64,000 nucleotides of DNA, from the NCBI GenBank assembly GCA_964435595.1, contig CAYSZV010000002.1:39956-103955 (forward strand). Reading direction: 5' to 3'. The position numbers and the translations under genes were made by a program. How positions within the stretch are numbered: the first letter of the stretch is position 1; the number at the start of each line of letters is the position of its first letter. Shown piece by piece: positions 46,643-62,347 of this stretch. The notes under the pieces were generated by a model. It did not search any database and was not told the DNA's origin. It was given only the letters and a program-made list of their open reading frames with translations. The stretch comes from an uncultured Candidatus Izemoplasmatales bacterium. GTDB taxonomy: Bacteria > Bacillota_I > Bacilli_A > Izemoplasmatales > Izemoplasmataceae.

Positions 46643-47407
46643 TTATTCAAACTTAGTTAGTGCTTGAAAATAATAGCTACTAATCGAATGACTCTGACCA
46701 TAATCAATCATTCTTCCTTGTTTATCAAACACATAATTTGTTGATTGCAAACTCGCTGCATTCACACTTTCATTTAAAAGTATAGCATTCTCTTTTGTAA
46801 GATTAACGATTTTTGTCGTTCTCTTTGAGATATGGGCTTTGAATCCATAATGCTCTCCAATATAGTTGTTTAGCGGTTCTGTTCCAATGAATTTTTTATC
46901 TAAGTCTTTGAATATATGCAATGGTAAATAGTTTTCCAAGATAATTATTGGACGATTACTTCCAAAATAAATACGGTTAATATACAGATAATCCTTTTTT
47001 TCGTTTGGTTCAAATCCCATGCTAATTGCTTCTTCATCTTCTAGCACTACCACTTTCTTTTCTAAGCACTTGATTGATGGTTCAAGACCCAATTCGATAA
47101 TCGCATCGTAAATAGAAGTGTTTCGTTCGAAGAAATAATTTGTAAGTTCAATATAAGAAACAAGATAATTATGGTTCTCTTTTTTGATATAGTTTTCATT
47201 CGCTAATAGGTTATATGCAGTACTTACTAGTTTCTCTGAAATCTTTAAATGTTTACTCAAAGATTTTACTGTTGGCAATATAGAGTTGTAATAGAATGTT
47301 TGATTTAAAATCAGAGCTTTGATGTTTTCTTTGATTTGGATAGAATAATTAACACGACTTCTTCTATCAATAGTAATCGTATTTTGATTAATCAATTGCA
47401 TGTACAA
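46643..47407 (-). CDS. GntR/HutC-like regulator paralogue with degenerate winged-HTH
   Basis: 254 aa. The HTH region LPTVKSLSKHLKISEKLVSTAYNLLANENYIKKENHNYLVS lacks the usual GxGTFV wing. The C-terminal half is UTRA-like. Confidence 0.6.
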   Translation of the reverse strand: MYMQLINQNTITIDRRSRVNYSIQIKENIKALILNQTFYYNSILPTVKSLSKHLKISEKLVSTAYNLLANENYIKKENHNYLVSYIELTNYFFERNTSIYDAIIELGLEPSIKCLEKKVVVLEDEEAISMGFEPNEKKDYLYINRIYFGSNRPIIILENYLPLHIFKDLDKKFIGTEPLNNYIGEHYGFKAHISKRTTKIVNLTKENAILLNESVNAASLQSTNYVFDKQGRMIDYGQSHSISSYYFQALTKFE

Positions 47408-48116
47408 TCACCTCGAATTCTGTAAATTCACCTGGGTAATAATTAATCAAATATCCAATCACTTCATCCATCTCATTTGTTATCTGAATCTTTAGCAAAT
47501 AGACAGCATCATTCGGATTAATATTTAACAGCAAAGCATTTGCTGAGCTTGCATTATAGGCACTAAATGTTGTATGTATATGTTTTACTTTTATATTATA
47601 TTGTTCTATCAAATCATAAATATTTTTAAATTCTTCAATATTTTCTTCAAACTTTGGAAAGAATTTTTCTGGTAGATATGCTTGTTGTAACAGTCTAGGA
47701 TTATTGTCTTTACAAAATACTGATCCTACTAAAAGATACTTTTCTTCATCATCTAAATTCAACACGCGCATAACACTGTATTCTTTATTCGATTTCCCAA
47801 GTAAGAATGTATTTTTAGTTACCAAATCGTCTTTTTCGAGTTCAAAATGATTGTGAAAATTCGTTCTAAAGGTTGTCCTATTTGTCACATATGTTCCCTT
47901 ACCCTTAATGCGCTTAATAAGGCCATTATTGATAAGTGTTTCATATCCTTTTTTTACTGCTGTTTGACTAATAGAGAACATCTCACAAATTTCTTTTTCT
48001 GTTGGAAGTTTATCATTATACATTAAGATTCCAGACTCAATAGCTTTTGTTATTGAGTCTGCGATTTGCTTGTATATTGATTTTGTTATTAATTTATTTA
48101 TGACAATATAATCCAT
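47388..48116 (-). CDS. GntR family transcriptional regulator, HutC subfamily (UTRA effector domain)
   Basis: LPTEKEICEMFSISQTAVKKGYETLINNGLIKRIKGKGTYV is a canonical GntR wHTH. Confidence 0.85.
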   Translation of the reverse strand: MDYIVINKLITKSIYKQIADSITKAIESGILMYNDKLPTEKEICEMFSISQTAVKKGYETLINNGLIKRIKGKGTYVTNRTTFRTNFHNHFELEKDDLVTKNTFLLGKSNKEYSVMRVLNLDDEEKYLLVGSVFCKDNNPRLLQQAYLPEKFFPKFEENIEEFKNIYDLIEQYNIKVKHIHTTFSAYNASSANALLLNINPNDAVYLLKIQITNEMDEVIGYLINYYPGEFTEFEVIVHAID

Positions 48117-48134: not shown

Positions 48135-49025
48135 CTAGTCTTTTGCTACACCCAATTCCTCAAGTAGTGTACCAACTAATCTTGGTCTTTCTGCTACTAG
48201 TGCACCAACACCAGTTAATGCTTTGATTTTATCTTCAACAGAGCCTTTACCCCCGGTTACAATTGCACCAGCATGCCCCATTTTTTGACCTTTAGGTGCA
48301 GTTCGTCCACCCAAGAAGGCTACCAATGGTTTCGTGAAGATTCCTTGTTCAATCGCATCAGCAACTTCTTCTTCCATTGTACCACCTAACTCACCAATTA
48401 TAACAACAGCTTTTGTTTCTTTATCATTTTCATATAATGGTAAGAACTCAGCAAATCGTGTTCCTGGTACTGGATCTCCCCCAATACCAATCAATGTTGA
48501 TACGCCATATCCTGCCTCTACAACCATTGATGTTACTTCATTTGTCAACGATCCACTTCTAGTCATAATACCAATACTACCTTTTTTATATACTCGTTCA
48601 ATCCAATACGGTAAACTACCCATCATTGCTAGTTCCGGACTAATCACACCCGATGTATTTCCACCAACAACTGTTGCGCCATGTTCTTTAGCTGCTTGAC
48701 GAATTCGAATCATATCATGCAATGGAATTCCATCAGCAATCGTTACTATTTTTTTTATGCCTGCATCTAGCGCTTCCATTACTGCATCGAATGTTAATCT
48801 TGGTGGTACAAACAACATTGATGCTTCAATATTATGAAGTGAAACTGCCTTTTTCACGCTATTATAAACAGGCTTTCCTGCGACAACTTGACCTTCTTTT
48901 CCAGGAGTCACTCCACACACTACATCTGTACCCAATTCTATCATATGCTGTGTCCAAAAGCTTCCTTCTTTTCCAGTAATTCCTTGTACACACACTGTTG
49001 TAGTTCGATTTATAAATATGCTCAT
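48135..49025 (-). CDS. succinyl-CoA synthetase alpha-like subunit of an ADP-forming acyl-CoA ligase (candidate sulfoacetate-CoA ligase subunit)
   Basis: A CoA-binding N-terminus (VQGITGKEG) and the phosphohistidine loop MGHAGAIV. The substrate is inferred from context only. Confidence 0.8.
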   Translation of the reverse strand: MSIFINRTTTVCVQGITGKEGSFWTQHMIELGTDVVCGVTPGKEGQVVAGKPVYNSVKKAVSLHNIEASMLFVPPRLTFDAVMEALDAGIKKIVTIADGIPLHDMIRIRQAAKEHGATVVGGNTSGVISPELAMMGSLPYWIERVYKKGSIGIMTRSGSLTNEVTSMVVEAGYGVSTLIGIGGDPVPGTRFAEFLPLYENDKETKAVVIIGELGGTMEEEVADAIEQGIFTKPLVAFLGGRTAPKGQKMGHAGAIVTGGKGSVEDKIKALTGVGALVAERPRLVGTLLEELGVAKD

Positions 49026-49027
49026 AT

Positions 49028-50146
49028 CTAGACTCCTTTTGCAATTGAAACAGCTTTTCTAACTGCTTCTTCTGTATCAAAGATAGGTTCAAGCCCAGCA
49101 GCTTTCAATGTTTCAACAGCTTCTGCTTCATTTGTCCCACGAATACAAGTAATAATTGGTCGATTAGGTTTCAATTTTGTAATGGCATCAACAATTCCTT
49201 TTGCCATGACATCTGCTCTCGCAATTGTTCCAAATGTAACAATTAAAATTACTTTCGAAGGTACTTTTAAACATATTTCCATTGATTCCAGTGCTTTTTT
49301 GTAGTTTGGTCCACCAAATTCAAGATAATTCGCAATCGTTCCACCTTCATAATGAATTAAATCATATACTGTCGTTGTCAACCCTGCTCCCGCACACATA
49401 AGTCCAATATCTCCATCAAATTGGATAAATGGAATTCCTTCTTGTGCTGCATCATATTCTGCTTCCGTTTTATAATCCGCAAGTTGTTTTTCGTATCTTG
49501 TTTGACGGAACATTGAATTATCATCAATCATTAATTTCCCATCACCTGCTACAACAGAATTATCAGCTGTAACAAATAACGGGTTGATTTCAACCAATTC
49601 AGCATCATATTTATTAAAGATATGGTATAACTTCAAAAATACAGTTCTTAATTGTTTCGCTATTGGCACATCTAGACCCAATCCAAACGCTACTCTTGAA
49701 GCTTGGTAAGGTAATAATCCGTATCGTAAATCGAAAGGTTCTTTTACAATTTTTTCCGGATGATTGACTGCTAAATCTTCAATATCTACTCCACCTTCAA
49801 CGCTTACCATTAACAGACCAGTTGCATGAACTGGATCAACTGTAATTGCACAGTAAATTTCTTGCTTAATATCAACAGCTTCTTCAATCAACAAACTCCT
49901 AATATTCAATTCATGCTCAAATAGTCTTTTGCTTTCTTTCAGCGCTTCTTGTTCCGTTTTTGTAAACACAACTAATCCAGCTTTGCCACGTCCACCACTT
50001 AATACTTGTGATTTGACAACGCAAGGTGTGCCAACAATCTCTAAGGCAGCTTTTGTTTCTTCATACGATGTGATTAATTCACTATTAGGAATAACAATTC
50101 CAGTTTCTTTAAATACTTCTTTTGCTTGATATTCAAATAATTTCAT
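49028..50146 (-). CDS. succinyl-CoA synthetase beta-like ATP-grasp subunit (candidate sulfoacetate-CoA ligase subunit)
   Basis: MKLFEYQAKEVF...VVKSQVLSGGRGKAG is the SucC ATP-grasp signature. At 372 aa it is slightly shorter than canonical SucC. Confidence 0.8.
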   Translation of the reverse strand: MKLFEYQAKEVFKETGIVIPNSELITSYEETKAALEIVGTPCVVKSQVLSGGRGKAGLVVFTKTEQEALKESKRLFEHELNIRSLLIEEAVDIKQEIYCAITVDPVHATGLLMVSVEGGVDIEDLAVNHPEKIVKEPFDLRYGLLPYQASRVAFGLGLDVPIAKQLRTVFLKLYHIFNKYDAELVEINPLFVTADNSVVAGDGKLMIDDNSMFRQTRYEKQLADYKTEAEYDAAQEGIPFIQFDGDIGLMCAGAGLTTTVYDLIHYEGGTIANYLEFGGPNYKKALESMEICLKVPSKVILIVTFGTIARADVMAKGIVDAITKLKPNRPIITCIRGTNEAEAVETLKAAGLEPIFDTEEAVRKAVSIAKGV

Positions 50147-50156
50147 AATACTTCAC

Positions 50157-51557
50157 CTACTTGAATTTCTTGAAATAATCACCAAAAATATCTTCATCCG
50201 TTGGACGCCAATTTGGTAATAATCCACTAACCCAAGTGATATTTAAGAAATGTTTAAAACTAATATTCTCAGTTGTAATATTACCTCCCCAACTACCACA
50301 TCCAAGAGATACAGTTGATGGCATTCCATTAAAGAACGCTCCACCATTCGCTGCTGCTTGAGGTTGGTTCACTACAATACGACTTGACTTCATATTCAAT
50401 CCTAAATGATCAATATACTCTTCTTTGAATGTATGAATACCACAAGAATGTCCAGTACCGTTATTATCAGTTAAGCGAACCAATATCTCGTAGCCTTCTT
50501 TGAATGTATTGTATTTGAAAATCGTCATAACTGGAGAAAGTTTTTCTTTACTAAAGAAGTCTGCTTCAATATTAGAAGCTCCTTCAACTAAGAGTACCTT
50601 AGTATTTTTTGGTACAGATATACCAGCATCACGAGCAATTACTTCTGCACTTCTTGCTACAATACCTGGATTGATTCCACGGTATCCTTTTTTATTCACT
50701 TTCCACATATGTTCTTCTAATAACTGTCTTTCTTGATTACTTACCATATAGCAACCAAGTAATTCAAATTCTTTTATCATATCACCATATACTGATTCTT
50801 GAATAATAACTGAATTTTCACTTGAACAAGACGTTGCATAATCAAATGATTTCGAAGCAAAAATTTTCTTTGCAGCATCGCTTGGAACGGCATCTTCAGC
50901 TACAATTTGGACTGAGTTACCCGGTCCAACTCCATATGCTGGTGTCCCACTTGAATAAGCTGCCCTTACCATTGCACTACCACCAGTAGCTAACACAACA
51001 TCAACTTGTTGCATTAGCTCATTGGTAGCAGAAATAGAAGGTTGTTCAATTATTAGTATTAAATCAGTTGGTGCTCCAACTTTTTCTAATCCTTTTCTCA
51101 TAAAGTCAACTGCCATTTTCGAACAATTCTTGGCTTTCGGATGAGGTGCAAAAATAACTGCATTTCTTCCCTTGACTATTGTTATCGCATTACTCGATGG
51201 TGTAGCTGTTGGATTTGTTACAGGAGTAAGTGCTCCGACAACGCCAACAGGCTTTGCAAATTTCTTAATGTTCTTCGTTTCATCAAACTCGACCAAGCCA
51301 ACGCTTTTCGCACCTTTGATATCCGCCAACACACCCAATACTTTATTCTTATGTTTTTTAATTTTATCTTCAACATTTCCCATTTCAGTTTCAGCAACAG
51401 CTGCTTCTGCTAATTGTTTAATGTTTTCATCATTGTAAACTTCCCAACCAATCGCGATACACACTTCATCAATTTGTTCTTGCGTATAATCTGCAATTTT
51501 TGCTTGGGCAATGCGTGCTCTCTCCACAAGAGAAGCAATCATATCTTTACTTTCCAT
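50157..51557 (-). CDS. CoA-acylating aldehyde dehydrogenase (EutE/PduP/Clostridium SucD family; candidate sulfoacetaldehyde dehydrogenase)
   Basis: 466 aa with TNPTATP, GGSAMV and the catalytic Cys context ATSCSSENS. There is no C-terminal ADH domain. Confidence 0.8.
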   Translation of the reverse strand: MESKDMIASLVERARIAQAKIADYTQEQIDEVCIAIGWEVYNDENIKQLAEAAVAETEMGNVEDKIKKHKNKVLGVLADIKGAKSVGLVEFDETKNIKKFAKPVGVVGALTPVTNPTATPSSNAITIVKGRNAVIFAPHPKAKNCSKMAVDFMRKGLEKVGAPTDLILIIEQPSISATNELMQQVDVVLATGGSAMVRAAYSSGTPAYGVGPGNSVQIVAEDAVPSDAAKKIFASKSFDYATSCSSENSVIIQESVYGDMIKEFELLGCYMVSNQERQLLEEHMWKVNKKGYRGINPGIVARSAEVIARDAGISVPKNTKVLLVEGASNIEADFFSKEKLSPVMTIFKYNTFKEGYEILVRLTDNNGTGHSCGIHTFKEEYIDHLGLNMKSSRIVVNQPQAAANGGAFFNGMPSTVSLGCGSWGGNITTENISFKHFLNITWVSGLLPNWRPTDEDIFGDYFKKFK

Positions 51558-51569
51558 CTTTTTCTCCTT

Positions 51570-52811
51570 TTATCCTAATAATCCTAACCCTGCAACGACT
51601 CCTAAAAATAGAGCGATAAAGGCTAGGGAACTAAATGCTACGATAAACAAATTCTTAAACAACGCTTTTTTATCTACTGTTTTAGGTGAACTAGCTAATG
51701 CCAATGCACCCATAGTAGAAAATGGTGACATCGTTACGATATGTGATGCAACTGCTATTGAAATTGTCAAGACAGTTGGTGATACAACATTTCCTAATTC
51801 TGTTGACAGTCCAACTGTTGTTGGGATAAGTGTCGGCATTACAACACCGACAGCACTAGAAAATATTGACATTACACCTGCTAAGATTGACATAATAGGA
51901 ACTGCAGTATATTCATTCATTAAACTTGCTAAGAAGTTAGAAATCAGTTCTACTCCTCCAACTTCATTTACAACACTAATCAAAACAGCTGTCCCACAAA
52001 TAAGCAGCAATGTAGACCATGGTATATTGAGAATTGCTTCATTTTGATCTGCTGCTCCAATCAATAGTAGTAATACTGAAAATACGATTGCAGCAAATCC
52101 AACATTTATGCCTCCAACAATTACCCAAATGACCAATAAGAATATCGATACTAAGGTAATGATTTGATACTTATCAAATCTACCTGCTGACTCAATTTCA
52201 ACACGATCTCCTCTTAGTTTTAATCCACCTAATACCAAAAATACAATTGCACTGAACGTCGTCATAGAAATAACATTCATTATATAAATAGAGTATCCCA
52301 AATCTCCAACACCATTTGTCATCGCTAAATCTAAAGCAACAATTCCATTAGGTGCCAAAGGTGATAAACCTCCTGCAATACTCCCAGTTATAATCAATGT
52401 CGACATCATCAGCACTGAAATTCTTGTTTTATAAGCTATGACCAATCCAATTGGTAATAACAAGGCACTTGTAGAAATGTTTCCAGGGCCAACTGATGCA
52501 ATAATCAACGCTAAAAAATAGAAGATAATTGGAATGAGTACTTTTCTACCTTTGCTCTGATATATGATAAATTTCGATATTTTTTCCAAGGTTCCATTTA
52601 ATTTTGCAATACTAAACAACAATGTAATTCCTACTGTTGTAAAGAATAACTTAATCGGCCAATAAGAGATAATCGTATTGATCGGAATACCTCCTAGGTA
52701 ATATCCAATGATCAACGAGAACACCAAAGCGATAAGTCCTACATTAATGTTTTTCCAAAACCCTAATATAATTGCAACTACAAGTGAAAGTAATGAGAGT
52801 ATGGCTACCAT
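51570..52811 (-). CDS. ion-transporter superfamily anion permease (CitMHS/ArsB-NhaD-like); candidate sulfoacetate exporter
   Basis: 413 aa with ~11-12 TM segments and an internal two-fold repeat. The family call is approximate and the role is inferred from context. Confidence 0.6.
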   Translation of the reverse strand: MVAILSLLSLVVAIILGFWKNINVGLIALVFSLIIGYYLGGIPINTIISYWPIKLFFTTVGITLLFSIAKLNGTLEKISKFIIYQSKGRKVLIPIIFYFLALIIASVGPGNISTSALLLPIGLVIAYKTRISVLMMSTLIITGSIAGGLSPLAPNGIVALDLAMTNGVGDLGYSIYIMNVISMTTFSAIVFLVLGGLKLRGDRVEIESAGRFDKYQIITLVSIFLLVIWVIVGGINVGFAAIVFSVLLLLIGAADQNEAILNIPWSTLLLICGTAVLISVVNEVGGVELISNFLASLMNEYTAVPIMSILAGVMSIFSSAVGVVMPTLIPTTVGLSTELGNVVSPTVLTISIAVASHIVTMSPFSTMGALALASSPKTVDKKALFKNLFIVAFSSLAFIALFLGVVAGLGLLG

Positions 52812-52829: not shown

Positions 52830-53309
52830 CTACTTATTAAAACTATTTTTTTCGATTTCGCGAACGATAGTTCTAGCTTTTACTAAATTGGCAGCACGCC
52901 AATCTTCTAAGTTTTGTGTGAATTCAGTTTCTAAAAATAGTTTTGCCATTTCAACTCCAACGATAGGTGCGATAATCCATCCACCCATACAAAGTACATT
53001 TGCATCGTTTATTGCACGACATTTTTCAGCAGAAAATGTTGTTTCGCATGCAGCTGCATGTACACCTTCATGCTTATTGGCAACGATACTCATACCCATA
53101 CCAGTTCCACAAATCAAAATACCTCTTTCATAGGTACCTGCTTGAAATGCTTTTGCACCTTTTTCAGCGACTTCAAAGAAAGGCAATGCTTTATCTGGAT
53201 CAAGAGTTCCAATATCATCGAAATCATAATTGTTTTCTTTTAAATATGTTTTAATTGCTTCTTTTAAATTGAATCCTGATTTATCAGATCCTAAAAATAA
53301 TTTTCCCAT
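52830..53309 (-). CDS. RpiB/LacA/LacB family sugar-phosphate isomerase (candidate sulfo-erythrose/erythrulose isomerase)
   Basis: 159 aa with GSDKSGF...ILICGTGMGMSIVANK, typical of RpiB. Confidence 0.82.
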   Translation of the reverse strand: MGKLFLGSDKSGFNLKEAIKTYLKENNYDFDDIGTLDPDKALPFFEVAEKGAKAFQAGTYERGILICGTGMGMSIVANKHEGVHAAACETTFSAEKCRAINDANVLCMGGWIIAPIVGVEMAKLFLETEFTQNLEDWRAANLVKARTIVREIEKNSFNK

Positions 53310-53324
53310 TGTTTTACCTCTTTC

Positions 53325-54265
53325 TTACTTTCTATCTAGTACACGCAAACATGCTTCAACTATGTCTGATGCCATTAAATTATATCGTTTTTGCAAATAA
53401 TCTTGTTGACCTACTTCACCAAATTGGTCTTTGACACCAACGCGCTCCATTGGAACGGGATAATTTTCTACTAAAACCTCTGCTACAGCACTTCCAAGAC
53501 CATTTATAATATTATGGTTTTCAGCTGTGACAATCGCACCAGTTTTCTTTGCTTCATTAATGACAGTTTGCACATCCAACGGTTTGACAGTATGAATATT
53601 AACCAAACTTGCGCTAATCCCTTTATCAGCTAATAGTTTCACTGCTTCCATTGCTTCAACAACCATGATTCCAGTTGCAAAGATTGTAACATCTGTTCCA
53701 TCATTGATTGGTGTTGCTTTTCCCAATTCAAATTCTTGGTCTAAATCAAACACATCAGCATTATATTTACGTGCTAAACGTATATATAATGGTCCCTTGT
53801 GTTCCATAATTTTTGGAAACATATTGTGAAGTTGCACTCCATCCACAGGTTCGAAAATAGTCATAGTAGGAATGTTTCTCATAATACCTACATCTTCAAA
53901 AGACATATGTGTTCCACCATTTAATTGTGCCAAATCCCAGGATCTGATCCTACCATTTTAACGTTTAATCTTGAATATGCTACACTCAACATCACTTGAT
54001 CAAATACACGTCTTGTTGCAAATGGTGTAAAAGAATGTGTAAATGGGATTTTACCCATATTAGATAATCCAGCTGCTACACCAATCATATTTGCTTCTGC
54101 AACACCAACATTGATTGTTCTTTCAGGAAACTCAGCTGTGAATTTCTTTGTTCCAAGTGCAGTTGATAAATCTGCTTCAACAATTACTAAGTTATCATTT
54201 TTTCTTGCATTTTCGATTAATAGATTTGTATATATATCTCTCATGTTATCTGTTTTTAAATTCAT
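53325..54265 (-). pseudogene. transketolase C-terminal (Pyr + C domain) subunit, interrupted by a 1-nt frameshift
   Basis: The ORFs 53921-54265 (...VGVAEANMIGVAAGL...VGSDPGI) and 53325-53933 (AQLNGGTHMSFEDVGIMRNIP...) are contiguous halves. The frames switch at GGGATTTGG (+ 53931-53939). One extra T would give DPGILAQLNGGTH. Confidence 0.85.
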
Positions 54266-55077
54266 TTTTGTAACCTCGCAATCGCTTCTTTGACTTGTTC
54301 TTTTGTCACTGGCATATTATGAGAACTTAATTTACCCTCACAGAAATATGCACCTTTTCCTTTAATTGTATTTAAAATAATCATCGATGGTTTCCCTTTT
54401 TCTTCTTTTGCCGCATCGATTGCTTCAGAAATTGCAATAACATCATGTCCATCAACTACTTGCACATGCCAATTGAAAGCTTCCCATTTTTTATCAAGCG
54501 GAGAAACACCATTAATATCTTTTGTAAATCCATCGATTTGCAACTTATTAAAATCAGTAAATGCAATGATTGTGTCTAATTTAGAAGTTCCTGCAAACAT
54601 TGCTGCTTCCCAAATTTGACCTTCTTGGCTTTCACCATCTCCAATAATCGCATATACATAGTTTTCTTTGTGATCCATTTTTAATGCTGTTGCCATACCA
54701 ACTGCTGCACTAAATCCTTGTCCTAAAGACCCAGTTGTCATATCAATCCCAGTTGTTTGATTCATATCAGTATGTGATGGTAATTTTGTTCCAGGAAGAT
54801 TTAACGTATTTAATAATTCCTTATCAAAATATCCTTTTAATGCTAATACTGCATATACTGCAGGTCCACCATGACCTTTTGACAATACAAATCGATCTCT
54901 ACTTGGTAGGGATGGATTTTGTGGATCAATATTCATTTGATCGAAATACAATACTGCCAATGCATCACAAATTGATAGACTGCCCCCAACATGTCCAATT
55001 CCTAATGTTCCAATACATTCTAATGTGTTAATGCGAATCTCTTTCGCTTTTTGTTCTAAATGTGCTCTTTTGTCCAT
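54262..55077 (-). CDS. transketolase N-terminal (ThDP-binding PP domain) subunit
   Basis: 271 aa with GHVGGSLS, SKGHGGPA and GDGESQEGQIWEA (the ThDP GDG motif). It is a split-type transketolase. Confidence 0.9.
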   Translation of the reverse strand: MDKRAHLEQKAKEIRINTLECIGTLGIGHVGGSLSICDALAVLYFDQMNIDPQNPSLPSRDRFVLSKGHGGPAVYAVLALKGYFDKELLNTLNLPGTKLPSHTDMNQTTGIDMTTGSLGQGFSAAVGMATALKMDHKENYVYAIIGDGESQEGQIWEAAMFAGTSKLDTIIAFTDFNKLQIDGFTKDINGVSPLDKKWEAFNWHVQVVDGHDVIAISEAIDAAKEEKGKPSMIILNTIKGKGAYFCEGKLSSHNMPVTKEQVKEAIARLQK

Positions 55078-55085
55078 GTTTCCTC

Positions 55086-56426
55086 CTAATATTTACATAT
55101 CTCAATATTTAAGATATTTCCTAGTATTTCTAATTCTTCACTAATGTCTTTGTATACAACTACAAAGTGAGGTTCCCACCCATCTGTGACCATTTCACTA
55201 ATAAGTTGATTGGTATCTCTTGGAACTTGAACAACAACTGAAGTTCCAGAAAACTGCTTCGGTTTATCTAATATTTCACCATTCAAGATAAAAAATCTAA
55301 ACTCACCATTCGGCTTACGCCCAATTCGAAAAATTGTTGCTTGTTTTGCAGGTCTTAATCCAAATTCCATTGTTGGTCCAATCTTACGATTTGGATGTAC
55401 TCCTGTTGCTGCGCCTGTATCTCTTCTAGCTAAAGAACATGCCCCAGCACCACAATGCCAAAATGTAATTGTATTTTCTGTTTCATCTAAGGAAACAGGA
55501 TCTCCCAAATATGTTGGTAACCCGCTAAATTTATTCCCAACATACATTGATAATGCTCCATATGCATCCGCTTCACAAGCTGCTGCAATACCGTCATCAT
55601 TTAACATTCCTAATACACCACAAACTGGTGTCCCATAATCTGTGAAGAAGTCTGGCCAACAACGTGAAGCAATTGCTTTTATATTGTTTTGATCAATATA
55701 GGTTTTGTAGACATTGTATAATTTATAAAAATCTACTCGATTCTTTTTCTTAGTATCTCTAATTCTAACCATACGTGAATCAGCACTTTCTTGTGTTTCT
55801 TTGATTTCCTCTTCGCTTAGTTTTTTTGCCATATTCGTCAATTCTCTAGATTCAACACTTAAGACATTTACCCCAAATGTTTTTGCCATATCTAAGTCGA
55901 GTGCTCGACCAAAGCCGAACCCTTCTGGAGTATGTCCAATCATCAGTAAATTGATATTAGACATATCATATTTCAATTTAGCAGCCTTGATAATCTTGCT
56001 TAACTTTTGTTCAATTATTTCTTCTGTCGGAGAACCAAACATGTACAATAGGTTGTTGTCACACATTTGTTTAAAGGCATTCCCTGCAGAAAATGCTCCT
56101 GTTAATGAATTTAGTCTCAAACGACCTCCGTCAATGACAGGTTCTCTTAAAGTCCATAGTAGAAATTGAGCATTTAATCTTTTAAAAATTTCAGTAGCAA
56201 AAGCCGCATTAGCAAAAGTAATATTTTGAACGATTACCAAATCCGGATTCTTCCCTTCTAAAAACTCTCTTAAAAGATTAATCGATAGAATCATTTCATC
56301 TGGTACAATAACGTCTGGCTCAATTGATCTAATTAATTTTATTGATGCATCGAATTCTCTTTGTGCAGATTCCAAATGGAATGTAGGAACTCCAATTGGG
56401 CAATAAATAACTTCAAACTTTTTCAT
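55086..56426 (-). CDS. L-fucose/L-arabinose isomerase-like family protein, function unknown
   Basis: 446 aa with an N-terminal Rossmann-like swivel (VIYCPIGVPTFHL...) and a C-terminal CEADAYGA / WHCGAG region like FucI/AraA-family proteins. The assignment is by eye. Confidence 0.6.
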   Translation of the reverse strand: MKKFEVIYCPIGVPTFHLESAQREFDASIKLIRSIEPDVIVPDEMILSINLLREFLEGKNPDLVIVQNITFANAAFATEIFKRLNAQFLLWTLREPVIDGGRLRLNSLTGAFSAGNAFKQMCDNNLLYMFGSPTEEIIEQKLSKIIKAAKLKYDMSNINLLMIGHTPEGFGFGRALDLDMAKTFGVNVLSVESRELTNMAKKLSEEEIKETQESADSRMVRIRDTKKKNRVDFYKLYNVYKTYIDQNNIKAIASRCWPDFFTDYGTPVCGVLGMLNDDGIAAACEADAYGALSMYVGNKFSGLPTYLGDPVSLDETENTITFWHCGAGACSLARRDTGAATGVHPNRKIGPTMEFGLRPAKQATIFRIGRKPNGEFRFFILNGEILDKPKQFSGTSVVVQVPRDTNQLISEMVTDGWEPHFVVVYKDISEELEILGNILNIEICKY

Positions 56427-56550: not shown

Positions 56551-57765
56551 CTACTCAGTAGGCGCTGCCGCTTTTAAATCTGTTTCTAATTGTGTAAGTA
56601 ATTCTAATGCTGTCATAGTATTCGCTGGGTCTGCACAATCAGCCGCGAAATCATTGATAATTGGATACATACCTGGAATCATAACTTGTGCTAGCCAGTC
56701 TTGTACATACATTTCATCTGTGTTTGCAATTTCATCTAAGAATACTGCGTATTCATCTGCGAAATCACCATATTCAACTGTTGCACCTAATCTAGGAGTT
56801 AAGTAAGGAACCCCACCAGTAAATGCGTCATGTTGTGCTCCTTCAGACATCCAAGCGATAAAATCAGTTGCTTCTGTTTCAGCTCCTGAACCACTAAATG
56901 CTGCTAATGATTTTCCACCTAAGATTGTCGCACGATTTGCTCCTTCAGGCATTGGTACTACTGCCCAATCAAACGCTGTAATATCTTGGTATCCACTTAC
57001 ATTCCAGTTTCCTGAAATATGGAATCCATATTCACCAGTTTTGAATAAGTTTGCTGCATTTGATCCTGCATATGGTTCAGCTGCAAATAATCCACTGTCA
57101 TAGAATCCCATAACCATTTCAACCACGTCAACTGCTGCTTGAGAAGTTAAGTTAGAACTAGTGTAAGGTGTATCCCAAATTTGCACTCCACCTTGATACA
57201 ATAAAGGCATCATTCTGTGTGCTTTTGGATCGATTAAACCTGGAGAAGCTACTCCAGTTACACCTTGTAATTTAGTCATTTCTGTTTCGAATTCATCCCA
57301 AGTCCATACATCTTCACCAGGTGCTGGATAATCAACTGAATTTGCATCTAGTAATGTTGTATTAACAAACATACCATTTGCAGTAATGTCCATTGGTAAA
57401 GAGATTACTTCACCATCATTGTTGTAGAATAAATTTGTAAATCCTGAAGTTGTGTAAACATCATCAAGAGGCTCAATATTGTCTTTGAAGTTATTCAAAT
57501 GACCTTCTGTTACACGAGCCAAAGCTGGAGCTTCTCCACCACTAATCATCGTAGCAAGTCTAGTTTCATAGTCATCATATGGAATTGTAACCAATTCAAT
57601 AACTACACCAGTTTCTTCTTCATAATCATCTAATAATGTTTGCATAACATCACCCTCTGTACCATCACTCCACCATAACATTTGTAGAGTTTCAGTTCCG
57701 CCACCACAGGCAGATAAAGCGAATACGCTTAGAACTAAAAGTAAACCTAAAGCTAATTTTTTCAT
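56551..57765 (-). CDS. ABC transporter substrate-binding lipoprotein (CUT1 sugar family); candidate SQ or SQ-glycerol binding protein
   Basis: Lipobox FALSAC, ~400 aa, acidic and Trp/Tyr-rich like family-1 sugar SBPs. The ATG at 57765 has a GGAGGA RBS. Confidence 0.82.
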   Translation of the reverse strand: MKKLALGLLLVLSVFALSACGGGTETLQMLWWSDGTEGDVMQTLLDDYEEETGVVIELVTIPYDDYETRLATMISGGEAPALARVTEGHLNNFKDNIEPLDDVYTTSGFTNLFYNNDGEVISLPMDITANGMFVNTTLLDANSVDYPAPGEDVWTWDEFETEMTKLQGVTGVASPGLIDPKAHRMMPLLYQGGVQIWDTPYTSSNLTSQAAVDVVEMVMGFYDSGLFAAEPYAGSNAANLFKTGEYGFHISGNWNVSGYQDITAFDWAVVPMPEGANRATILGGKSLAAFSGSGAETEATDFIAWMSEGAQHDAFTGGVPYLTPRLGATVEYGDFADEYAVFLDEIANTDEMYVQDWLAQVMIPGMYPIINDFAADCADPANTMTALELLTQLETDLKAAAPTE

Positions 57766-57823
57766 AAATTCCTCCATTTTATTTTTTTGTTTATGTTAAA
57801 TCCTGTTTCTTAAACAGTAATTT

Positions 57824-58639
57824 TTAACCCTTCATTCCAGTTTGAACCGTTCCTTGTACAAATTGTTTTTGGAAAATCAAGAAAATGATTAACATTGGAA
57901 CCATCGAGATAGCTGACATTGCTAAAATTGAGCTATAATCTGAGCCATACTCTCCCGAGAAGTTCGCAATTGCAAGTTGTAAAGTATACTTGTCTGGTGA
58001 ACTGATCGCAATCAGTGGCCAAACATAATCATTCCATCTCCACATAAATGAGAAGATTGCCAACGTAGCGATAGCTGGCTTTGCATTTGGTAAAATGATA
58101 AATATGAATATTCTTAGTTCAGATGCTCCATCAATACGAGCTGACTCAATGATTTCATCTGGTATGGTAACAAGATATTGTCTCATTAAGAAGATACCTG
58201 TTGGTGTTGCTGCAGCAGGAATAATCAATGCTGCCAACGTATCATACATTCCGAATGTTTTTAAAACACTGAATATCGGAACCATAATTACTTCAAGTGG
58301 TAACATAATTGTTGATAGAATAATCATCATAATAATGGTCGCACCCTTAAATTTGAATTTTGCCAGGGCGTATCCACTCATTGTATTGATTACGACTGCA
58401 AGGAAAGTTGATGTTGTCGCAACAACTAAAGAGTTGATGATATATCGGAAAAAGTCACCTCTGCTTAAAGCATATACGTAATTCTCGATTGTAAATTTTC
58501 TTGGAAAGAATGTTGGAACTGCGGTAAATAAGTCGTTTGATGTTTTAAATGACGATAAAATGATATAAAGTACAGGTGTTAAGAAAACCAGTACAATTGA
58601 TAAAGCAAGAATGTATTGAAATGTTAGTTTTCCTTTCAT
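57824..58639 (-). CDS. carbohydrate ABC transporter permease (MalG-like)
   Basis: 271 aa with 6 TM segments and an EAA loop (ESARIDGASELRIF). Confidence 0.88.
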   Translation of the reverse strand: MKGKLTFQYILALSIVLVFLTPVLYIILSSFKTSNDLFTAVPTFFPRKFTIENYVYALSRGDFFRYIINSLVVATTSTFLAVVINTMSGYALAKFKFKGATIIMMIILSTIMLPLEVIMVPIFSVLKTFGMYDTLAALIIPAAATPTGIFLMRQYLVTIPDEIIESARIDGASELRIFIFIILPNAKPAIATLAIFSFMWRWNDYVWPLIAISSPDKYTLQLAIANFSGEYGSDYSSILAMSAISMVPMLIIFLIFQKQFVQGTVQTGMKG

Positions 58640-59532
58640 TCGTGGCTTCCTCCTTTGGATAGATAGAAGTTTAATCCTGTAATAATCGTCACAAACAATA
58701 ACATAATAACACTCATTGCACTTGCATATCCTACCTGATAGCTTCTAAATGCCATTTCATAAATATATTGAACAGTAAATTCAGTTGCATCGAATGGTCC
58801 ACCACCAGTTAAAGTAACAACAAGTGGATAGGTTTTAAACACTTCCATGGTGACAAGAATAAATACCATCACCCTTGCTGCTTTCAAAGACGGCCAAGTA
58901 ACATACAAGAAACGTTGCACTCTATTTGCTCCATCCATTCTTGCCGCTTCATATAATGAAACCGGAACACTGAATAAGGCTGCAACAAATATAATCATAT
59001 AATATCCTGCTCGTGACCAAACAATCGCAAACACTACTGCCACCCATGCAAATAATGGATTAGTAAGTGTATCAATTGGATCAAAGCCAAACACTCCTAT
59101 CAGTTGATTAAACATTGATCGATCGGTTGCCAATATCCAGTTCCACATAATCCCTACTACTACAGCCGATATCATAACTGGCCAATAATATGATGCACGG
59201 AATAATCCAACTAATTTTAGAGGTTGAACCAATAATACTCCCAGTGCCAAAGAAACGACAAATACAATTGGGACAGTTACTATAACTAATGAAAAAGTAT
59301 TAATTATTGCAGCGATAAAATCCTCATCTTGGAACAATCTTATATAATTTTCTAACCCAACAAAATCAGGTGTACCGAATGTGAATAAGGTCATATTGGT
59401 AAATGAATAATAAACACCAATCAATGCAGGATAAATAATGAAAATTGAGAATATAAGTAAATTGGGTGTTAAAAAGAGATATGGTATAATCTTTTGTTTC
59501 GCCTTATATACTTTAAACGATTCTTTGCGCAT
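58636..59532 (-). CDS. carbohydrate ABC transporter permease (MalF-like)
   Basis: 298 aa with 6 TM segments and an EAA loop (EAARMDGANRVQRF). Confidence 0.88.
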   Translation of the reverse strand: MRKESFKVYKAKQKIIPYLFLTPNLLIFSIFIIYPALIGVYYSFTNMTLFTFGTPDFVGLENYIRLFQDEDFIAAIINTFSLVIVTVPIVFVVSLALGVLLVQPLKLVGLFRASYYWPVMISAVVVGIMWNWILATDRSMFNQLIGVFGFDPIDTLTNPLFAWVAVVFAIVWSRAGYYMIIFVAALFSVPVSLYEAARMDGANRVQRFLYVTWPSLKAARVMVFILVTMEVFKTYPLVVTLTGGGPFDATEFTVQYIYEMAFRSYQVGYASAMSVIMLLFVTIITGLNFYLSKGGSHE

Positions 59533-61541
59533 TACTCTATTCCTCCATTTCCATATTTATGAGTAATTGTTTGAAACAATTCTCTAAATGGTGAATCTGA
59601 TTTATAGAAAACTGGGGGATATCCAATCATTGCATCTACAGTTATATTCCCACCTTTATATTGTTCTCCAGTCCACAAATGAATCCAATCATCTTGTGGT
59701 AAAAAAACTTCTTTTTGAATTTGATGTTCTGATACAACCGGAACTACAATTATGTCTTTTCCAAACATGTATGAATACTGTATGTCATATAGAACTATTT
59801 CATCTTCATAATGCATGAACAATGGACGTTGTAATGGATATCCTTTGGTTGCTGCTTCGTTATATAATGATGAAATATATGGCTTTAGTTCTTGTCTAAT
59901 TTTAGTCATTCTCGATAGTAGTTGTAATGTCTTACTATCATTATAGAACTGGAAATTTTCAGATGGTCTATTTCCTTCATGGGTTCTCATAATCGAAGAA
60001 AACACACTCATTTCAAGCCAACGTTCAAATAATTCTTTGGATCTGATATTTCCATATAGACTTGTATACCCACCAATATCACTATGGGTAAATGGATTCC
60101 CAATGATTCCAACAGACAATGCTGACGGGATAACAGAAGCAATTCCATCATGCAATTCCCAATTAACACTTTGGTCTCCTGCCCATAATGCAGTAGCGTA
60201 TTTCTGAGATCCAAAATTACCACTTCTCATAAAGTAGAATACTTGCCCAAGCTTACCAGCTTCAACCACTGCTTCATAATTGCATTTTGCCCAAAGTACA
60301 GGCCATTCATTATGCATTATGAGAGCATCTTTTTTATTATATAAAACACAATCAGTTGGTAGGTATTCACCAAAATCTGCCATCCAACCTTTCACGCCCA
60401 AATCAATAATATTTGTTTGAATGATGCTTTTATACCATTCAAATGCCTTTGGATTTGTTAAATCAACAGCTCCACAAAAGAATTCTCCAAAATCTATAAG
60501 ATACACATCTCCTTCTTTATTGAAGACCAAATAATCATTTTCTTTTGCTTCAATAAAGAGTGATTGTTCTTCCAATAAAAACGGACATATATATGTTAGG
60601 AAAGCTACTCCTTTTTTATTCAACTGTTTGATTTGCTCAACCAATCCAGGATATACATCCTCGTTCAATGTCCAATTCCAAAATAGTCTTTTTCCAAATG
60701 TAGTATGTTTATATCCTGCCCAATCTTGACACCAGAGTCCAGATACTTTTACATCAAACTGTTCTGCTAACGCCAAATATTCAAGCACCTTATTCATTCC
60801 ACCTTGAAGACCTAACACAATTCCATCAAGTAAATATTCTGGAAGAACTGGTGTTCTACCAACAAAATCAGTAATATCTTCTACAAGATCCAAATACGTT
60901 TCTTTTGAAGATATGATAATTTCTCTTGGTGTTTCCCAAAAATGCAATTCGTGAAACTCAGGATGTTCAAAATTAAACTCTGAATAGGCATAAGAATCAG
61001 CATGAAGCCAGTACTTTCTAGTAGAAACATATGTTGCCTCAGGGTAATATGTATTGTAATAATCTCCACCTGAACCATCGGCTTTATCGGCATAAAAAGT
61101 AGTTAAGGACGTTTTATCTCTTCCAACACCTGGCTCTGAGGTAAACAAGGGAAAATTTCTACCTCTTAGGTTAAAGTATGAGGCTTGTTCTCCACACCCA
61201 TAGACTTTTTCCTCAGCAGTTGCATATATTCTCATCCAAAATCTATTGATGTAATTATTTGTTGATAGACTGATGTGTAATCTGTCATCTTTTTCAACTA
61301 GTTTTATTTTTAATTTCATATCGCAATGACTAAAGATAATAACATTTCCTTCAATTTGATAAGAATCAAGGCCGATTCTTTCCTCAATAAAGTCTGATAT
61401 GTCAAAGTTACCACGATAATGTTTGATTGTCTCAATTCCACTTCCTACAAAAAATGCAGGATTTTTCTTTCGGTGACTAATAACCAATTTTTCGTTGTGG
61501 AATATATCTACTCCGTTGCTCTTCTCTTTGTAATTAATCAT
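59532..61541 (-). CDS. yihQ: GH31 sulfoquinovosidase (YihQ-like)
   Basis: 669 aa. The motifs are WCQDW...TFGKRLFWNW (+ 60672-60701; the Arg/Trp sulfonate pocket of YihQ-type enzymes), the nucleophile motif KGWMADFGE and the acid/base motif HSDIGGY. Confidence 0.85.
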   Translation of the reverse strand: MINYKEKSNGVDIFHNEKLVISHRKKNPAFFVGSGIETIKHYRGNFDISDFIEERIGLDSYQIEGNVIIFSHCDMKLKIKLVEKDDRLHISLSTNNYINRFWMRIYATAEEKVYGCGEQASYFNLRGRNFPLFTSEPGVGRDKTSLTTFYADKADGSGGDYYNTYYPEATYVSTRKYWLHADSYAYSEFNFEHPEFHELHFWETPREIIISSKETYLDLVEDITDFVGRTPVLPEYLLDGIVLGLQGGMNKVLEYLALAEQFDVKVSGLWCQDWAGYKHTTFGKRLFWNWTLNEDVYPGLVEQIKQLNKKGVAFLTYICPFLLEEQSLFIEAKENDYLVFNKEGDVYLIDFGEFFCGAVDLTNPKAFEWYKSIIQTNIIDLGVKGWMADFGEYLPTDCVLYNKKDALIMHNEWPVLWAKCNYEAVVEAGKLGQVFYFMRSGNFGSQKYATALWAGDQSVNWELHDGIASVIPSALSVGIIGNPFTHSDIGGYTSLYGNIRSKELFERWLEMSVFSSIMRTHEGNRPSENFQFYNDSKTLQLLSRMTKIRQELKPYISSLYNEAATKGYPLQRPLFMHYEDEIVLYDIQYSYMFGKDIIVVPVVSEHQIQKEVFLPQDDWIHLWTGEQYKGGNITVDAMIGYPPVFYKSDSPFRELFQTITHKYGNGGIE

Positions 61542-61552
61542 AATAGACCTCT

Positions 61553-62218
61553 TTAAAATGTAACTTTGTAGTTTTGTCCGGTTATTCCAGGATGGGCACC
61601 TTTATCAATCAATGTCTTATTATCAACATGTGCTAGTAGCCACTTATTTGTTTTAAACAACAATTCGTTTTCTAGTGTTCCTTTATTTTTTGCTGATACA
61701 AATGAAACATTTGTACCTTTCGGTAAAATTACTCCGCATTTAAATCCAGTCTCTATAACTCGACATGGAGAAAAATGCAATACTCCAGCATTAATTTCAA
61801 TTACAGAATTTTTTGGTATATAAAATGCTTCTAATTTACTTGAATCATAAGTGTTATTTTCAATATCACATGAATGACCAAGTAGTAAAACCATTGGAGT
61901 CGCAGCAATATTTACTTCTGATGATTTGTGATACTCTAATGCATTCATATATGAATTGTTTCCATTGACATATCCAAATTGAATTGGGATTTGTCCAAAT
62001 ACATCATCATATGGAGAAACATCCTGTAGTGATAAAAAGAAATCCTCATCATGAGCAATATAGACATTTCCACTTTTCGGAATGTCTAACTTATTTAAAT
62101 ATATAAATGCATCATGGAACAAGTCACTTTGTAAAATTTTACCATATGCTCCGAAGGCTTTATCTGTATAATTCTTTATCTTTATACAAGGATTTTTCTT
62201 TATTAAATTATCAATCAT
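61553..62218 (-). CDS. DUF4867 family cupin-like protein (candidate sulfoquinovose isomerase)
   Basis: 221 aa from ATG 62218 (GGTGGA RBS); the in-frame upstream start at 62278 is less likely. It is the first gene of the locus. The DUF4867 call and the isomerase role are from memory of sulfo-TAL/TK clusters. Confidence 0.6.
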   Translation of the reverse strand: MIDNLIKKNPCIKIKNYTDKAFGAYGKILQSDLFHDAFIYLNKLDIPKSGNVYIAHDEDFFLSLQDVSPYDDVFGQIPIQFGYVNGNNSYMNALEYHKSSEVNIAATPMVLLLGHSCDIENNTYDSSKLEAFYIPKNSVIEINAGVLHFSPCRVIETGFKCGVILPKGTNVSFVSAKNKGTLENELLFKTNKWLLAHVDNKTLIDKGAHPGITGQNYKVTF

Positions 62219-62347
62219 ATTTTCCACCAAAATATGTAACCGCTTTCCTTTAAATGTAAAAAAAATAGATTGCTGCATTTGCTTATAAGGCTCAATAATC
62301 TAAAAGATAATAAACAAAATAATCTATCTAGCATTATTTCTACATTA

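Follow-up and report, generated by a model that had tools for sequence, protein, structure and literature searches.

The stretch of DNA analysed here, referred to below as the window, comprises 64,000 nucleotides (nt) from an uncultured Candidatus Izemoplasmatales bacterium (GenBank assembly GCA_964435595.1, contig CAYSZV010000002.1, positions 39,956 to 103,955) and has a G+C content of about 32%. The genome assembly consists of 46 contigs totalling 1.78 Mb and is 91% complete, so that the genome-wide absences given below are provisional. Within the window, four adjacent genes at 48135-52811 encode a permease with MatC_N and CitMHS matches, a CoA-acylating aldehyde dehydrogenase and the two subunits of a ligase resembling succinyl-CoA synthetase (SucCD). 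These genes form the distal part of a single co-directional operon that carries the complete gene set of the sulfo-transketolase (sulfo-TK) route that degrades sulfoquinovose (SQ), a sulfosugar of plants (Table 1). The block is best read as the oxidative, ATP-yielding end of that pathway together with a carrier that exports the product, sulfoacetate, and we put the probability of this reading at roughly 0.8. The enzyme steps have already been published, and to that extent the reading holds without being novel; the linked carrier is the only element that goes beyond the published account examined.

The block and its enzymes

The operon runs in the order SqvB, YihQ, ATP-binding cassette (ABC) importer, SqvD, SqwGH, SqwI, the four-gene block and two GntR genes, and the sulfo-TK gene set as reviewed previously (PMC9594981) is the same as that surrounding the block. 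YihQ, SqvB, SqvD, the split SqwGH and SqwI are thus co-located, and the dehydrogenase shares an operon with SqwGH and SqwI, the enzymes that would form its proposed substrate. The four genes are tightly packed, with 12, 10 and 2 nt between permease, dehydrogenase, SucC-like and SucD-like genes and 18 nt to either flanking gene. This arrangement bears out an earlier note, made from the letters of the window alone, which had described the genes as one contiguous block. The same note had picked out the cysteine context of the dehydrogenase, which lies at residue 241 and is kept in 45 orthologues, and the phosphohistidine loop of the SucD-like subunit, which lies at residue 249 and is conserved across 41 orthologues. 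It had also, correctly, seen an ATP-grasp motif in the SucC-like subunit (an ATP-grasp_2 match) and no alcohol dehydrogenase domain in the dehydrogenase: Aldedh is the sole domain in its 466 residues, and the AdhE model aligned over model positions 12-449 of 872 only. The remark that the window holds no other tricarboxylic acid (TCA) cycle genes can be extended to the genome, in which a single SucC-type gene was found and citrate synthase and aconitase were not.

In the proposed scheme, the ABC system would import SQ or its glycoside, YihQ would release SQ, and SqvB and SqvD would isomerise it. SqwGH and SqwI would then move two C2 units onto glyceraldehyde-3-phosphate, leaving sulfoacetaldehyde. 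The SqwD-type dehydrogenase is predicted to convert sulfoacetaldehyde, NAD+ and CoA into sulfoacetyl-CoA by way of its active-site cysteine, and the SqwKL-type ligase to cleave the thioester through its phosphohistidine and pass the phosphate to ADP, giving sulfoacetate and one ATP per SQ. Sulfoacetate, which would not be degraded further, may finally leave the cell through the MatC-like anion carrier, presumably of the elevator type, whose gene separates sqwI from sqwD.

The enzymatic part of this scheme, which the earlier note had proposed in outline (from sulfoacetaldehyde via sulfoacetyl-CoA to sulfoacetate, with a gain of ATP), coincides with a published sulfo-TK variant and is supported by the operon context and by the relatives of the enzymes. 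According to papers that cite Chu et al. 2023, AEM 89:e0061723 (PMC12890257, PMC11659671, PMC11489063), recombinant SqwD and SqwKL of an Acholeplasma sp. convert sulfoacetaldehyde to sulfoacetate with formation of ATP; the idea of a sulfoacetate-forming end had appeared by 2022, in a text that refers back to the pathway paper of 2021 (PMC9594981). As the citing papers describe it, the Acholeplasma variant shares with the window the enzyme set, the predicted chemistry and the flanking sulfo-TK genes, and no enzyme difference is detectable in this comparison, which was drawn through those papers. The closest named relatives of the window's genome belong to the Acholeplasmataceae and Izemoplasmatales. 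In Bilophila wadsworthia, both enzyme families occur as SauS and SauCD and handle these intermediates the other way round, so as to consume sulfoacetate (PMC10413351). A near-specificity for sulfoacetate has been shown for SauCD, which retains 20% activity on 3-sulfopropanoate and 7% on malonate and does not use succinate, and the known or proposed importers of Bilophila, SauXYZ (TTT) and SauI (DASS), are not MatC-like (PMC10413351). Use of sulfoacetate and not of succinate is also reported, in the citing literature, for the Acholeplasma SqwKL. From homology and gene context it is very likely that the window's enzymes carry out the chemistry of their Acholeplasma and Bilophila orthologues.

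The earlier assignment of the dehydrogenase to the acylating type stands, although the likeness to EutE and PduP that came with it was imprecise: the protein is nearer to SauS, C. kluyveri SucD and the N-terminal domain of AdhE. Its best NCBIfam match is the SauS model NF047625, whose cut-off of 600 bits it misses with a score of 510. That model looks narrow, since a SauS-like gene lying beside Xsc in a metagenome contig (L066) also scores just 465 bits on it; the window's dehydrogenase is 54% identical to the product of this gene, which belongs to an Xsc-SauS-SauCD-TctABC cluster. The closest match of known structure is 8cei (E 3e-105), an acylating succinate-semialdehyde dehydrogenase, in agreement with the published description of the family.

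The ligase has the two-subunit architecture of SucCD, with an ATP-grasp beta subunit and a CoA-binding alpha subunit that carries the phosphohistidine loop. It differs from the canonical enzymes: the SucC-like and SucD-like subunits reach 322 and 325 bits on the NCBIfam models for succinate-CoA ligase beta and alpha, below the respective cut-offs of 370 and 336, and the TCA-cycle partners were not found, as described above. In the SucC-like subunit, MCAGAG and TFGTIARAD take the place of the MVNGAG and NIFGGI(V/T)RCD of canonical SucC; xxNGAG and NIFGGI(V/T)RCD are found in SucC of E. coli and Thermus and in most other representatives. MCAGAG (in one case MVAGAG) and motifs of the TFGTIARAD type are shared by the SauC-type relatives P0124-P0126. 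These positions, we assume, line the acid-binding pocket of succinyl-CoA synthetase.

Relatives of the SucC-like subunit, which has no second homologue in the genome, were collected by searching, exhaustively, a library of 1.8 billion representatives clustered at 50% identity. The closest one outside its own clade, at 59% identity, is the SauC-type gene of the L066 contig. The order there is Xsc (bona fide, with 770 bits on a model whose cut-off is 676), SauS-like gene, SauC, SauD and TctABC, which is the sulfoacetate-degradation architecture described in PMC10413351. Another relative, at 49% identity, is flanked by a DASS permease and by a gene scoring above the cut-off of the SauS model (667 bits). 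The SqwK signature was considered and rejected as a marker specific to sulfonates, similar but non-identical patterns being present in relatives of 43-45% identity that have no sulfonate context. In two loci of this kind (L064, with P0128, and L065, with P0130), SucCD-like pairs 43-45% identical to SqwK directly follow subunits of a 2-oxoacid:ferredoxin oxidoreductase and combine LCTGAG or MCAGAG with TFGLVARAD or VFGLIARTD; in one of the two, TctCBA comes next. By their sequences and neighbours, these pairs appear to be an uncharacterised subgroup of acid-CoA ligases without sulfonate context. A further SucCD-like pair (L062:10001-13473; 53% identical to SqwK, with MCAGAG) is accompanied by a DASS permease without an adjacent aldehyde dehydrogenase, and adjoins subunits of a xanthine-dehydrogenase-type molybdoenzyme and a TRAP DctM gene.

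Neither Xsc nor a glycyl-radical enzyme like pyruvate formate-lyase (of the HpfG or IseG type) was found in the genome, and because of these absences sulfoacetate looks like a dead-end product that would have to leave the cell. Together with the transketolase route to sulfoacetaldehyde, they make oxidation followed by excretion of sulfoacetate the coherent reading. The single iron-containing alcohol dehydrogenase of the genome is unlinked to the cluster. Elsewhere, the genome encodes 2-oxoacid:ferredoxin oxidoreductases of the pyruvate:ferredoxin oxidoreductase type and two acetate kinases, and this predicted enzyme set fits a fermenter living on substrate-level phosphorylation. A phosphoketolase route for xylulose-5-phosphate was also considered, and was dropped when no phosphoketolase was found in the genome.

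The linked permease

Among the proteins of the genome, the permease alone belongs to the CitMHS family. It matches MatC_N over its full length (102.6 bits) and CitMHS (81.5 bits), in both cases above the Pfam cut-off; it has no match among the NCBIfam models or to PF01925 (TauE/SafE), and a sequence search of solved structures returned no useful match (E 0.88). Its neighbours in the Atlas carry the labels UIT1 or SLC13. We take the MatC_N family to be TCDB 2.A.101, formerly UIT1. MatC is a malonate uptake carrier, and malonate corresponds to sulfoacetate with a carboxylate in place of the sulfonate group; the permease shares MatC_N and CitMHS with that family, from which it would differ in having a sulfonate as substrate and an outward direction, and malonate genes are not found nearby.

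An internal repeat had been claimed for this protein in the earlier note. By sequence the repeat is weak, profile-profile comparison of the N-terminal and C-terminal halves giving E 1.4e-3 and a probability of 17% over 92 columns; in an AlphaFold model (pLDDT 80.7) it is clear, with 10+10 helices of matching lengths in the two halves. Foldseek searches with this model returned VcINDY, human NaS1 (TMq 0.79), NaDC3, LaINDY and ArsB, with a probability of 1.00 for VcINDY, NaS1, NaDC3 and LaINDY. As modelled, the permease is therefore of the DASS/VcINDY type, with the two-repeat fold of an elevator-type di-anion carrier. A direct BLASTP comparison with a SauI-like DASS protein is marginal (E 0.03), so that the kinship holds at the level of Pfam clan and fold only.

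The evidence that ties the permease to the pathway comes from its linkage. Homologues 58-90% identical to it were found in 51 species-representative genomes, and in 50 of these the gene lies in an SQ operon, in the order SqwI-permease-SqwD-SqwK-SqwL on every contig of sufficient length. The 50 genomes are labelled as metagenome-assembled genomes of Acholeplasmataceae, Izemoplasmatales, Mariniplasma and Erysipelotrichaceae, together with the complete genomes of Tenericutes MO-XQ and Izemoplasma sp. B36. The exception is an Acidobacteriota genome with two MatC-like paralogues (33-36% identical; L057:278-1522 and 9992-11230) that adjoin genes for MmgE/PrpD, a D-serine-dehydratase-like protein and an RraA-like aldolase, a neighbourhood which suggests that other members of the MatC-like family may take other short-chain acids. 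Across 158 genomes of the order, SqwK is present in 18 genomes and the permease in 19, and 17 have both; in the genome with SqwK only, the contig stops 1.2 kb past SqwK, and the two permease-only matches are on small contigs. SqwK and the permease occur in 13-14 of the 34 genera of the order. Since both other genomes of the window's own genus (G088 and G089) lack SqwK and permease alike, the SQ cluster is patchy and behaves like an accessory island.

Further evidence came from metagenome contigs, which were scanned with an alignment of SqwK and SauC and annotated with the window's proteins, giving 80 loci. The sulfo-TK clusters among them fall into 22 with a MatC-like permease, 13 with a DASS permease and 2 that are truncated; in none of the 35 informative clusters is a carrier missing. 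Clusters of the DASS class (L110, L111, L114, L122, L125, L131, L133, L134, L137-L139, L142 and L143) have no MatC-like gene and instead carry, directly after SqwL, a Na_sulph_symp/DASS permease of 480-495 residues, whereas the window has its 413-residue MatC_N carrier before SqwD. They share SqwGH, SqwI and SqwDKL with the window and likewise have an adjacent carrier of the ion-transporter superfamily (e.g. L110, L114, L131 and L143); the order is sometimes SqwDKL-DASS-SqwGHI, and their SqwK is 57-65% identical to that of the window. The presence of two different di-anion carriers of one superfamily at the same place argues that the cargo is the di-anionic product of the pathway.

On this genetic linkage, the permease probably carries sulfoacetate, and probably outward; that the genome has no second CitMHS protein also speaks for it as the sulfoacetate carrier. 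A stronger version of the proposal, in which the MatC-like carrier is a dedicated sulfoacetate exporter, is somewhat favoured by the same data: MatC-like proteins (in Acholeplasmatales, Izemoplasmatales and Erysipelotrichales) or DASS proteins (elsewhere) would have been recruited in place of the TauE/SafE protein of the isethionate-producing variant. TauE/SafE proteins, which include SqwE for isethionate and SafE for sulfoacetate, would have the same role in excreting a C2-sulfonate end product and belong to an unrelated family. No published report that names the MatC family as a sulfoacetate carrier was found, Chu et al. 2023 being known here through the papers that cite it.

Export and its alternatives

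Several observations weigh against the reading of the block as a whole. The direction in which a carrier works is not readable from its sequence, and MatC itself, as mentioned, works in uptake. The 50 syntenic loci come from related lineages and lie on what appears to be a mobile island, and they cannot be counted as 50 independent events. The dehydrogenase falls below the SauS equivalog cut-off, and sqwH is frameshifted in the window assembly, although re-assemblies point to an error (see below). DASS relatives beside SauS-SauCD have been proposed to be importers (SauI; PMC10413351). Finally, the genome has three genes of the TauE/SafE family that are unlinked to the operon (C44:121-843, C22:1017-1736 and C15:36476-37168). 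This family is the one cited for exporting sulfoacetate (PMC10413263), and by family membership the three genes are alternative candidates for the export of sulfonate or sulfite. The enzymes could then act as described while the permease imports free SQ or another small anion, or exchanges sulfoacetate for a substrate, and export proceeds through one of the unlinked TauE/SafE proteins. Members of the ion-transporter superfamily work in either direction. However, wherever a locus is informative, the permease accompanies SqwDKL, its sole substitute being a different di-anion carrier; the operon already encodes an ABC sugar importer; and none of the loci examined has a MatC-like copy in a sulfoacetate-consuming context. 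A 2026 review (PMC12890257) describes the clusters of the variant as lacking a TauE-type SqwE, and the TauE genes are unlinked here. We consider this alternative unlikely, if still the most serious of those discussed.

The remaining alternatives change the chemistry of the block, and both are very improbable. The four genes might constitute a C4-dicarboxylate block unrelated to sulfonates, made up of an acylating succinate-semialdehyde dehydrogenase, a true succinyl-CoA synthetase and a dicarboxylate carrier. The identity of 8cei and the fact that succinate-CoA ligase models are the best NCBIfam matches of both ligase subunits can be cited for this, and the 2-oxoacid:ferredoxin oxidoreductases of the genome could supply acyl-CoAs; yet both subunits fall below those models' cut-offs, the SucC-like one has residues of canonical SucC replaced, SauS tops the list of models for the dehydrogenase, the nearest relatives adjoin Xsc, and in about 50 species the genes are embedded in an SQ operon, in the window's case in a genome where TCA genes were not found. 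Alternatively, the block could make 3-sulfopropionate or run in reverse on imported sulfoacetate, as homologous pairs do elsewhere (HpfX-HpfYZ and SauCD-SauS; PMC11489063, PMC10413351) and as the reversibility of such CoA ligases would allow. In Enterococcus gilvus, HpfX and HpfYZ are also an acylating aldehyde dehydrogenase and an ADP-forming SucCD-like ligase that gain ATP from a sulfo-aldehyde (PMC11489063), but they act on a C3 sulfonate, depend on the glycyl-radical enzyme HpfG and belong to a sulfo-transaldolase rather than a sulfo-TK context. Against both versions stand the absence from the genome of such a glycyl-radical enzyme and of Xsc, the lack of a reductase gene in the cluster, and the transketolase route of the operon, which yields sulfoacetaldehyde.

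If the block does form and export sulfoacetate, it bears on the fate of SQ sulfur in communities, where the C2 or C3 sulfonate excreted by primary degraders decides which secondary degraders (e.g. Bilophila) make sulfide. The enzyme steps being established, the locus is a further instance of them at the level of a genome, in Mollicutes of mat and sediment type. By textbook stoichiometry, the four carbons gained per SQ would be worth about 4/3 ATP on the way to pyruvate and up to 4/3 more on the way to acetate. For a small fermenter, the one ATP from SqwKL would thus make up much of the yield, and it would cost an additional NADH that has to be disposed of. The permease is a well-supported candidate for the missing efflux step and could serve as a marker of sulfoacetate-producing sulfoglycolysis in metagenomes. 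Sulfoacetate would then be the first sulfonate substrate, and export the first such role, ascribed to the MatC family, and efflux of a di-anion might add to the membrane potential.

The surrounding operon

The coordinates of the genes are collected in Table 1, from the SqvB gene to the regulator genes at the operon end.

Table 1. Genes of the sulfo-TK operon in window coordinates, in the order of transcription (aa, amino acids)
Feature	Position	Strand	Matches and remarks
SqvB/DUF4867	61553-62278	-	DUF4867 match
YihQ-type sulfoquinovosidase (GH31)	59532-61541	-	NF007746 (PRK10426), presumably the YihQ model; 894.6 bits, cut-off 553
Two ABC permeases	57824-59532	-	BPD_transp_1
ABC substrate-binding protein	56551-57777	-	SBP_bac_8
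SqvD-type SQ isomerase, FucI-like	55086-56426	-	NF048012, 416 bits, under the cut-off of 700; sole NCBIfam match
SqwG (split transketolase)	54262-55077	-	Transketolase_N, Transket_pyr and Transketolase_C in the SqwG/SqwH region
SqwH, split in the assembly	53921-54265 and 53325-53933	-	One base missing in a T run
SqwI-type isomerase, RpiB/LacAB family	52830..53309	-	PF02502, 142 bits; sulfoerythrose to sulfoerythrulose role per PMC9594981
MatC_N/CitMHS permease, 413 aa	51570..52811	-	Candidate sulfoacetate exporter
SqwD-type CoA-acylating sulfoacetaldehyde dehydrogenase, 466 aa	50157..51557	-	Aldedh; catalytic Cys within ATSCSSENS
SucC-like (SqwK-type) beta subunit, 372 aa	49028..50146	-	ATP-grasp_2 (176.7 bits) and Ligase_CoA
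SqwL-type (SucD-like) alpha subunit, 296 aa	48135..49025	-	CoA_binding and Ligase_CoA; phosphohistidine loop MGHAGAIV
Two tandem GntR/UTRA regulator genes	46643..48116	-	GntR and UTRA; operon end

The two GntR/UTRA genes overlap by 20 nt. Such a pair follows SqwL here and in most loci of the Mollicutes type, and is missing from several loci of the Erysipelotrichaceae and DASS types.

The frameshift in sqwH lies at 53921-53940, where the window has T3 and other sequences have T4. Over the rest of the 16.3-kb cluster, the window and a JGI contig with an intact SqwH (313 aa) share 99.8% identity, and the sqwH base is the only gap between them. The extra base also appears, at 53931 and at low depths of 4.7 and 3.7, in Logan re-assemblies made from two runs of the sample from which the window probably derives. 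Because near-identical contigs and re-assemblies have this base, the frameshift is probably an assembly or consensus error rather than the mark of a pseudogene.

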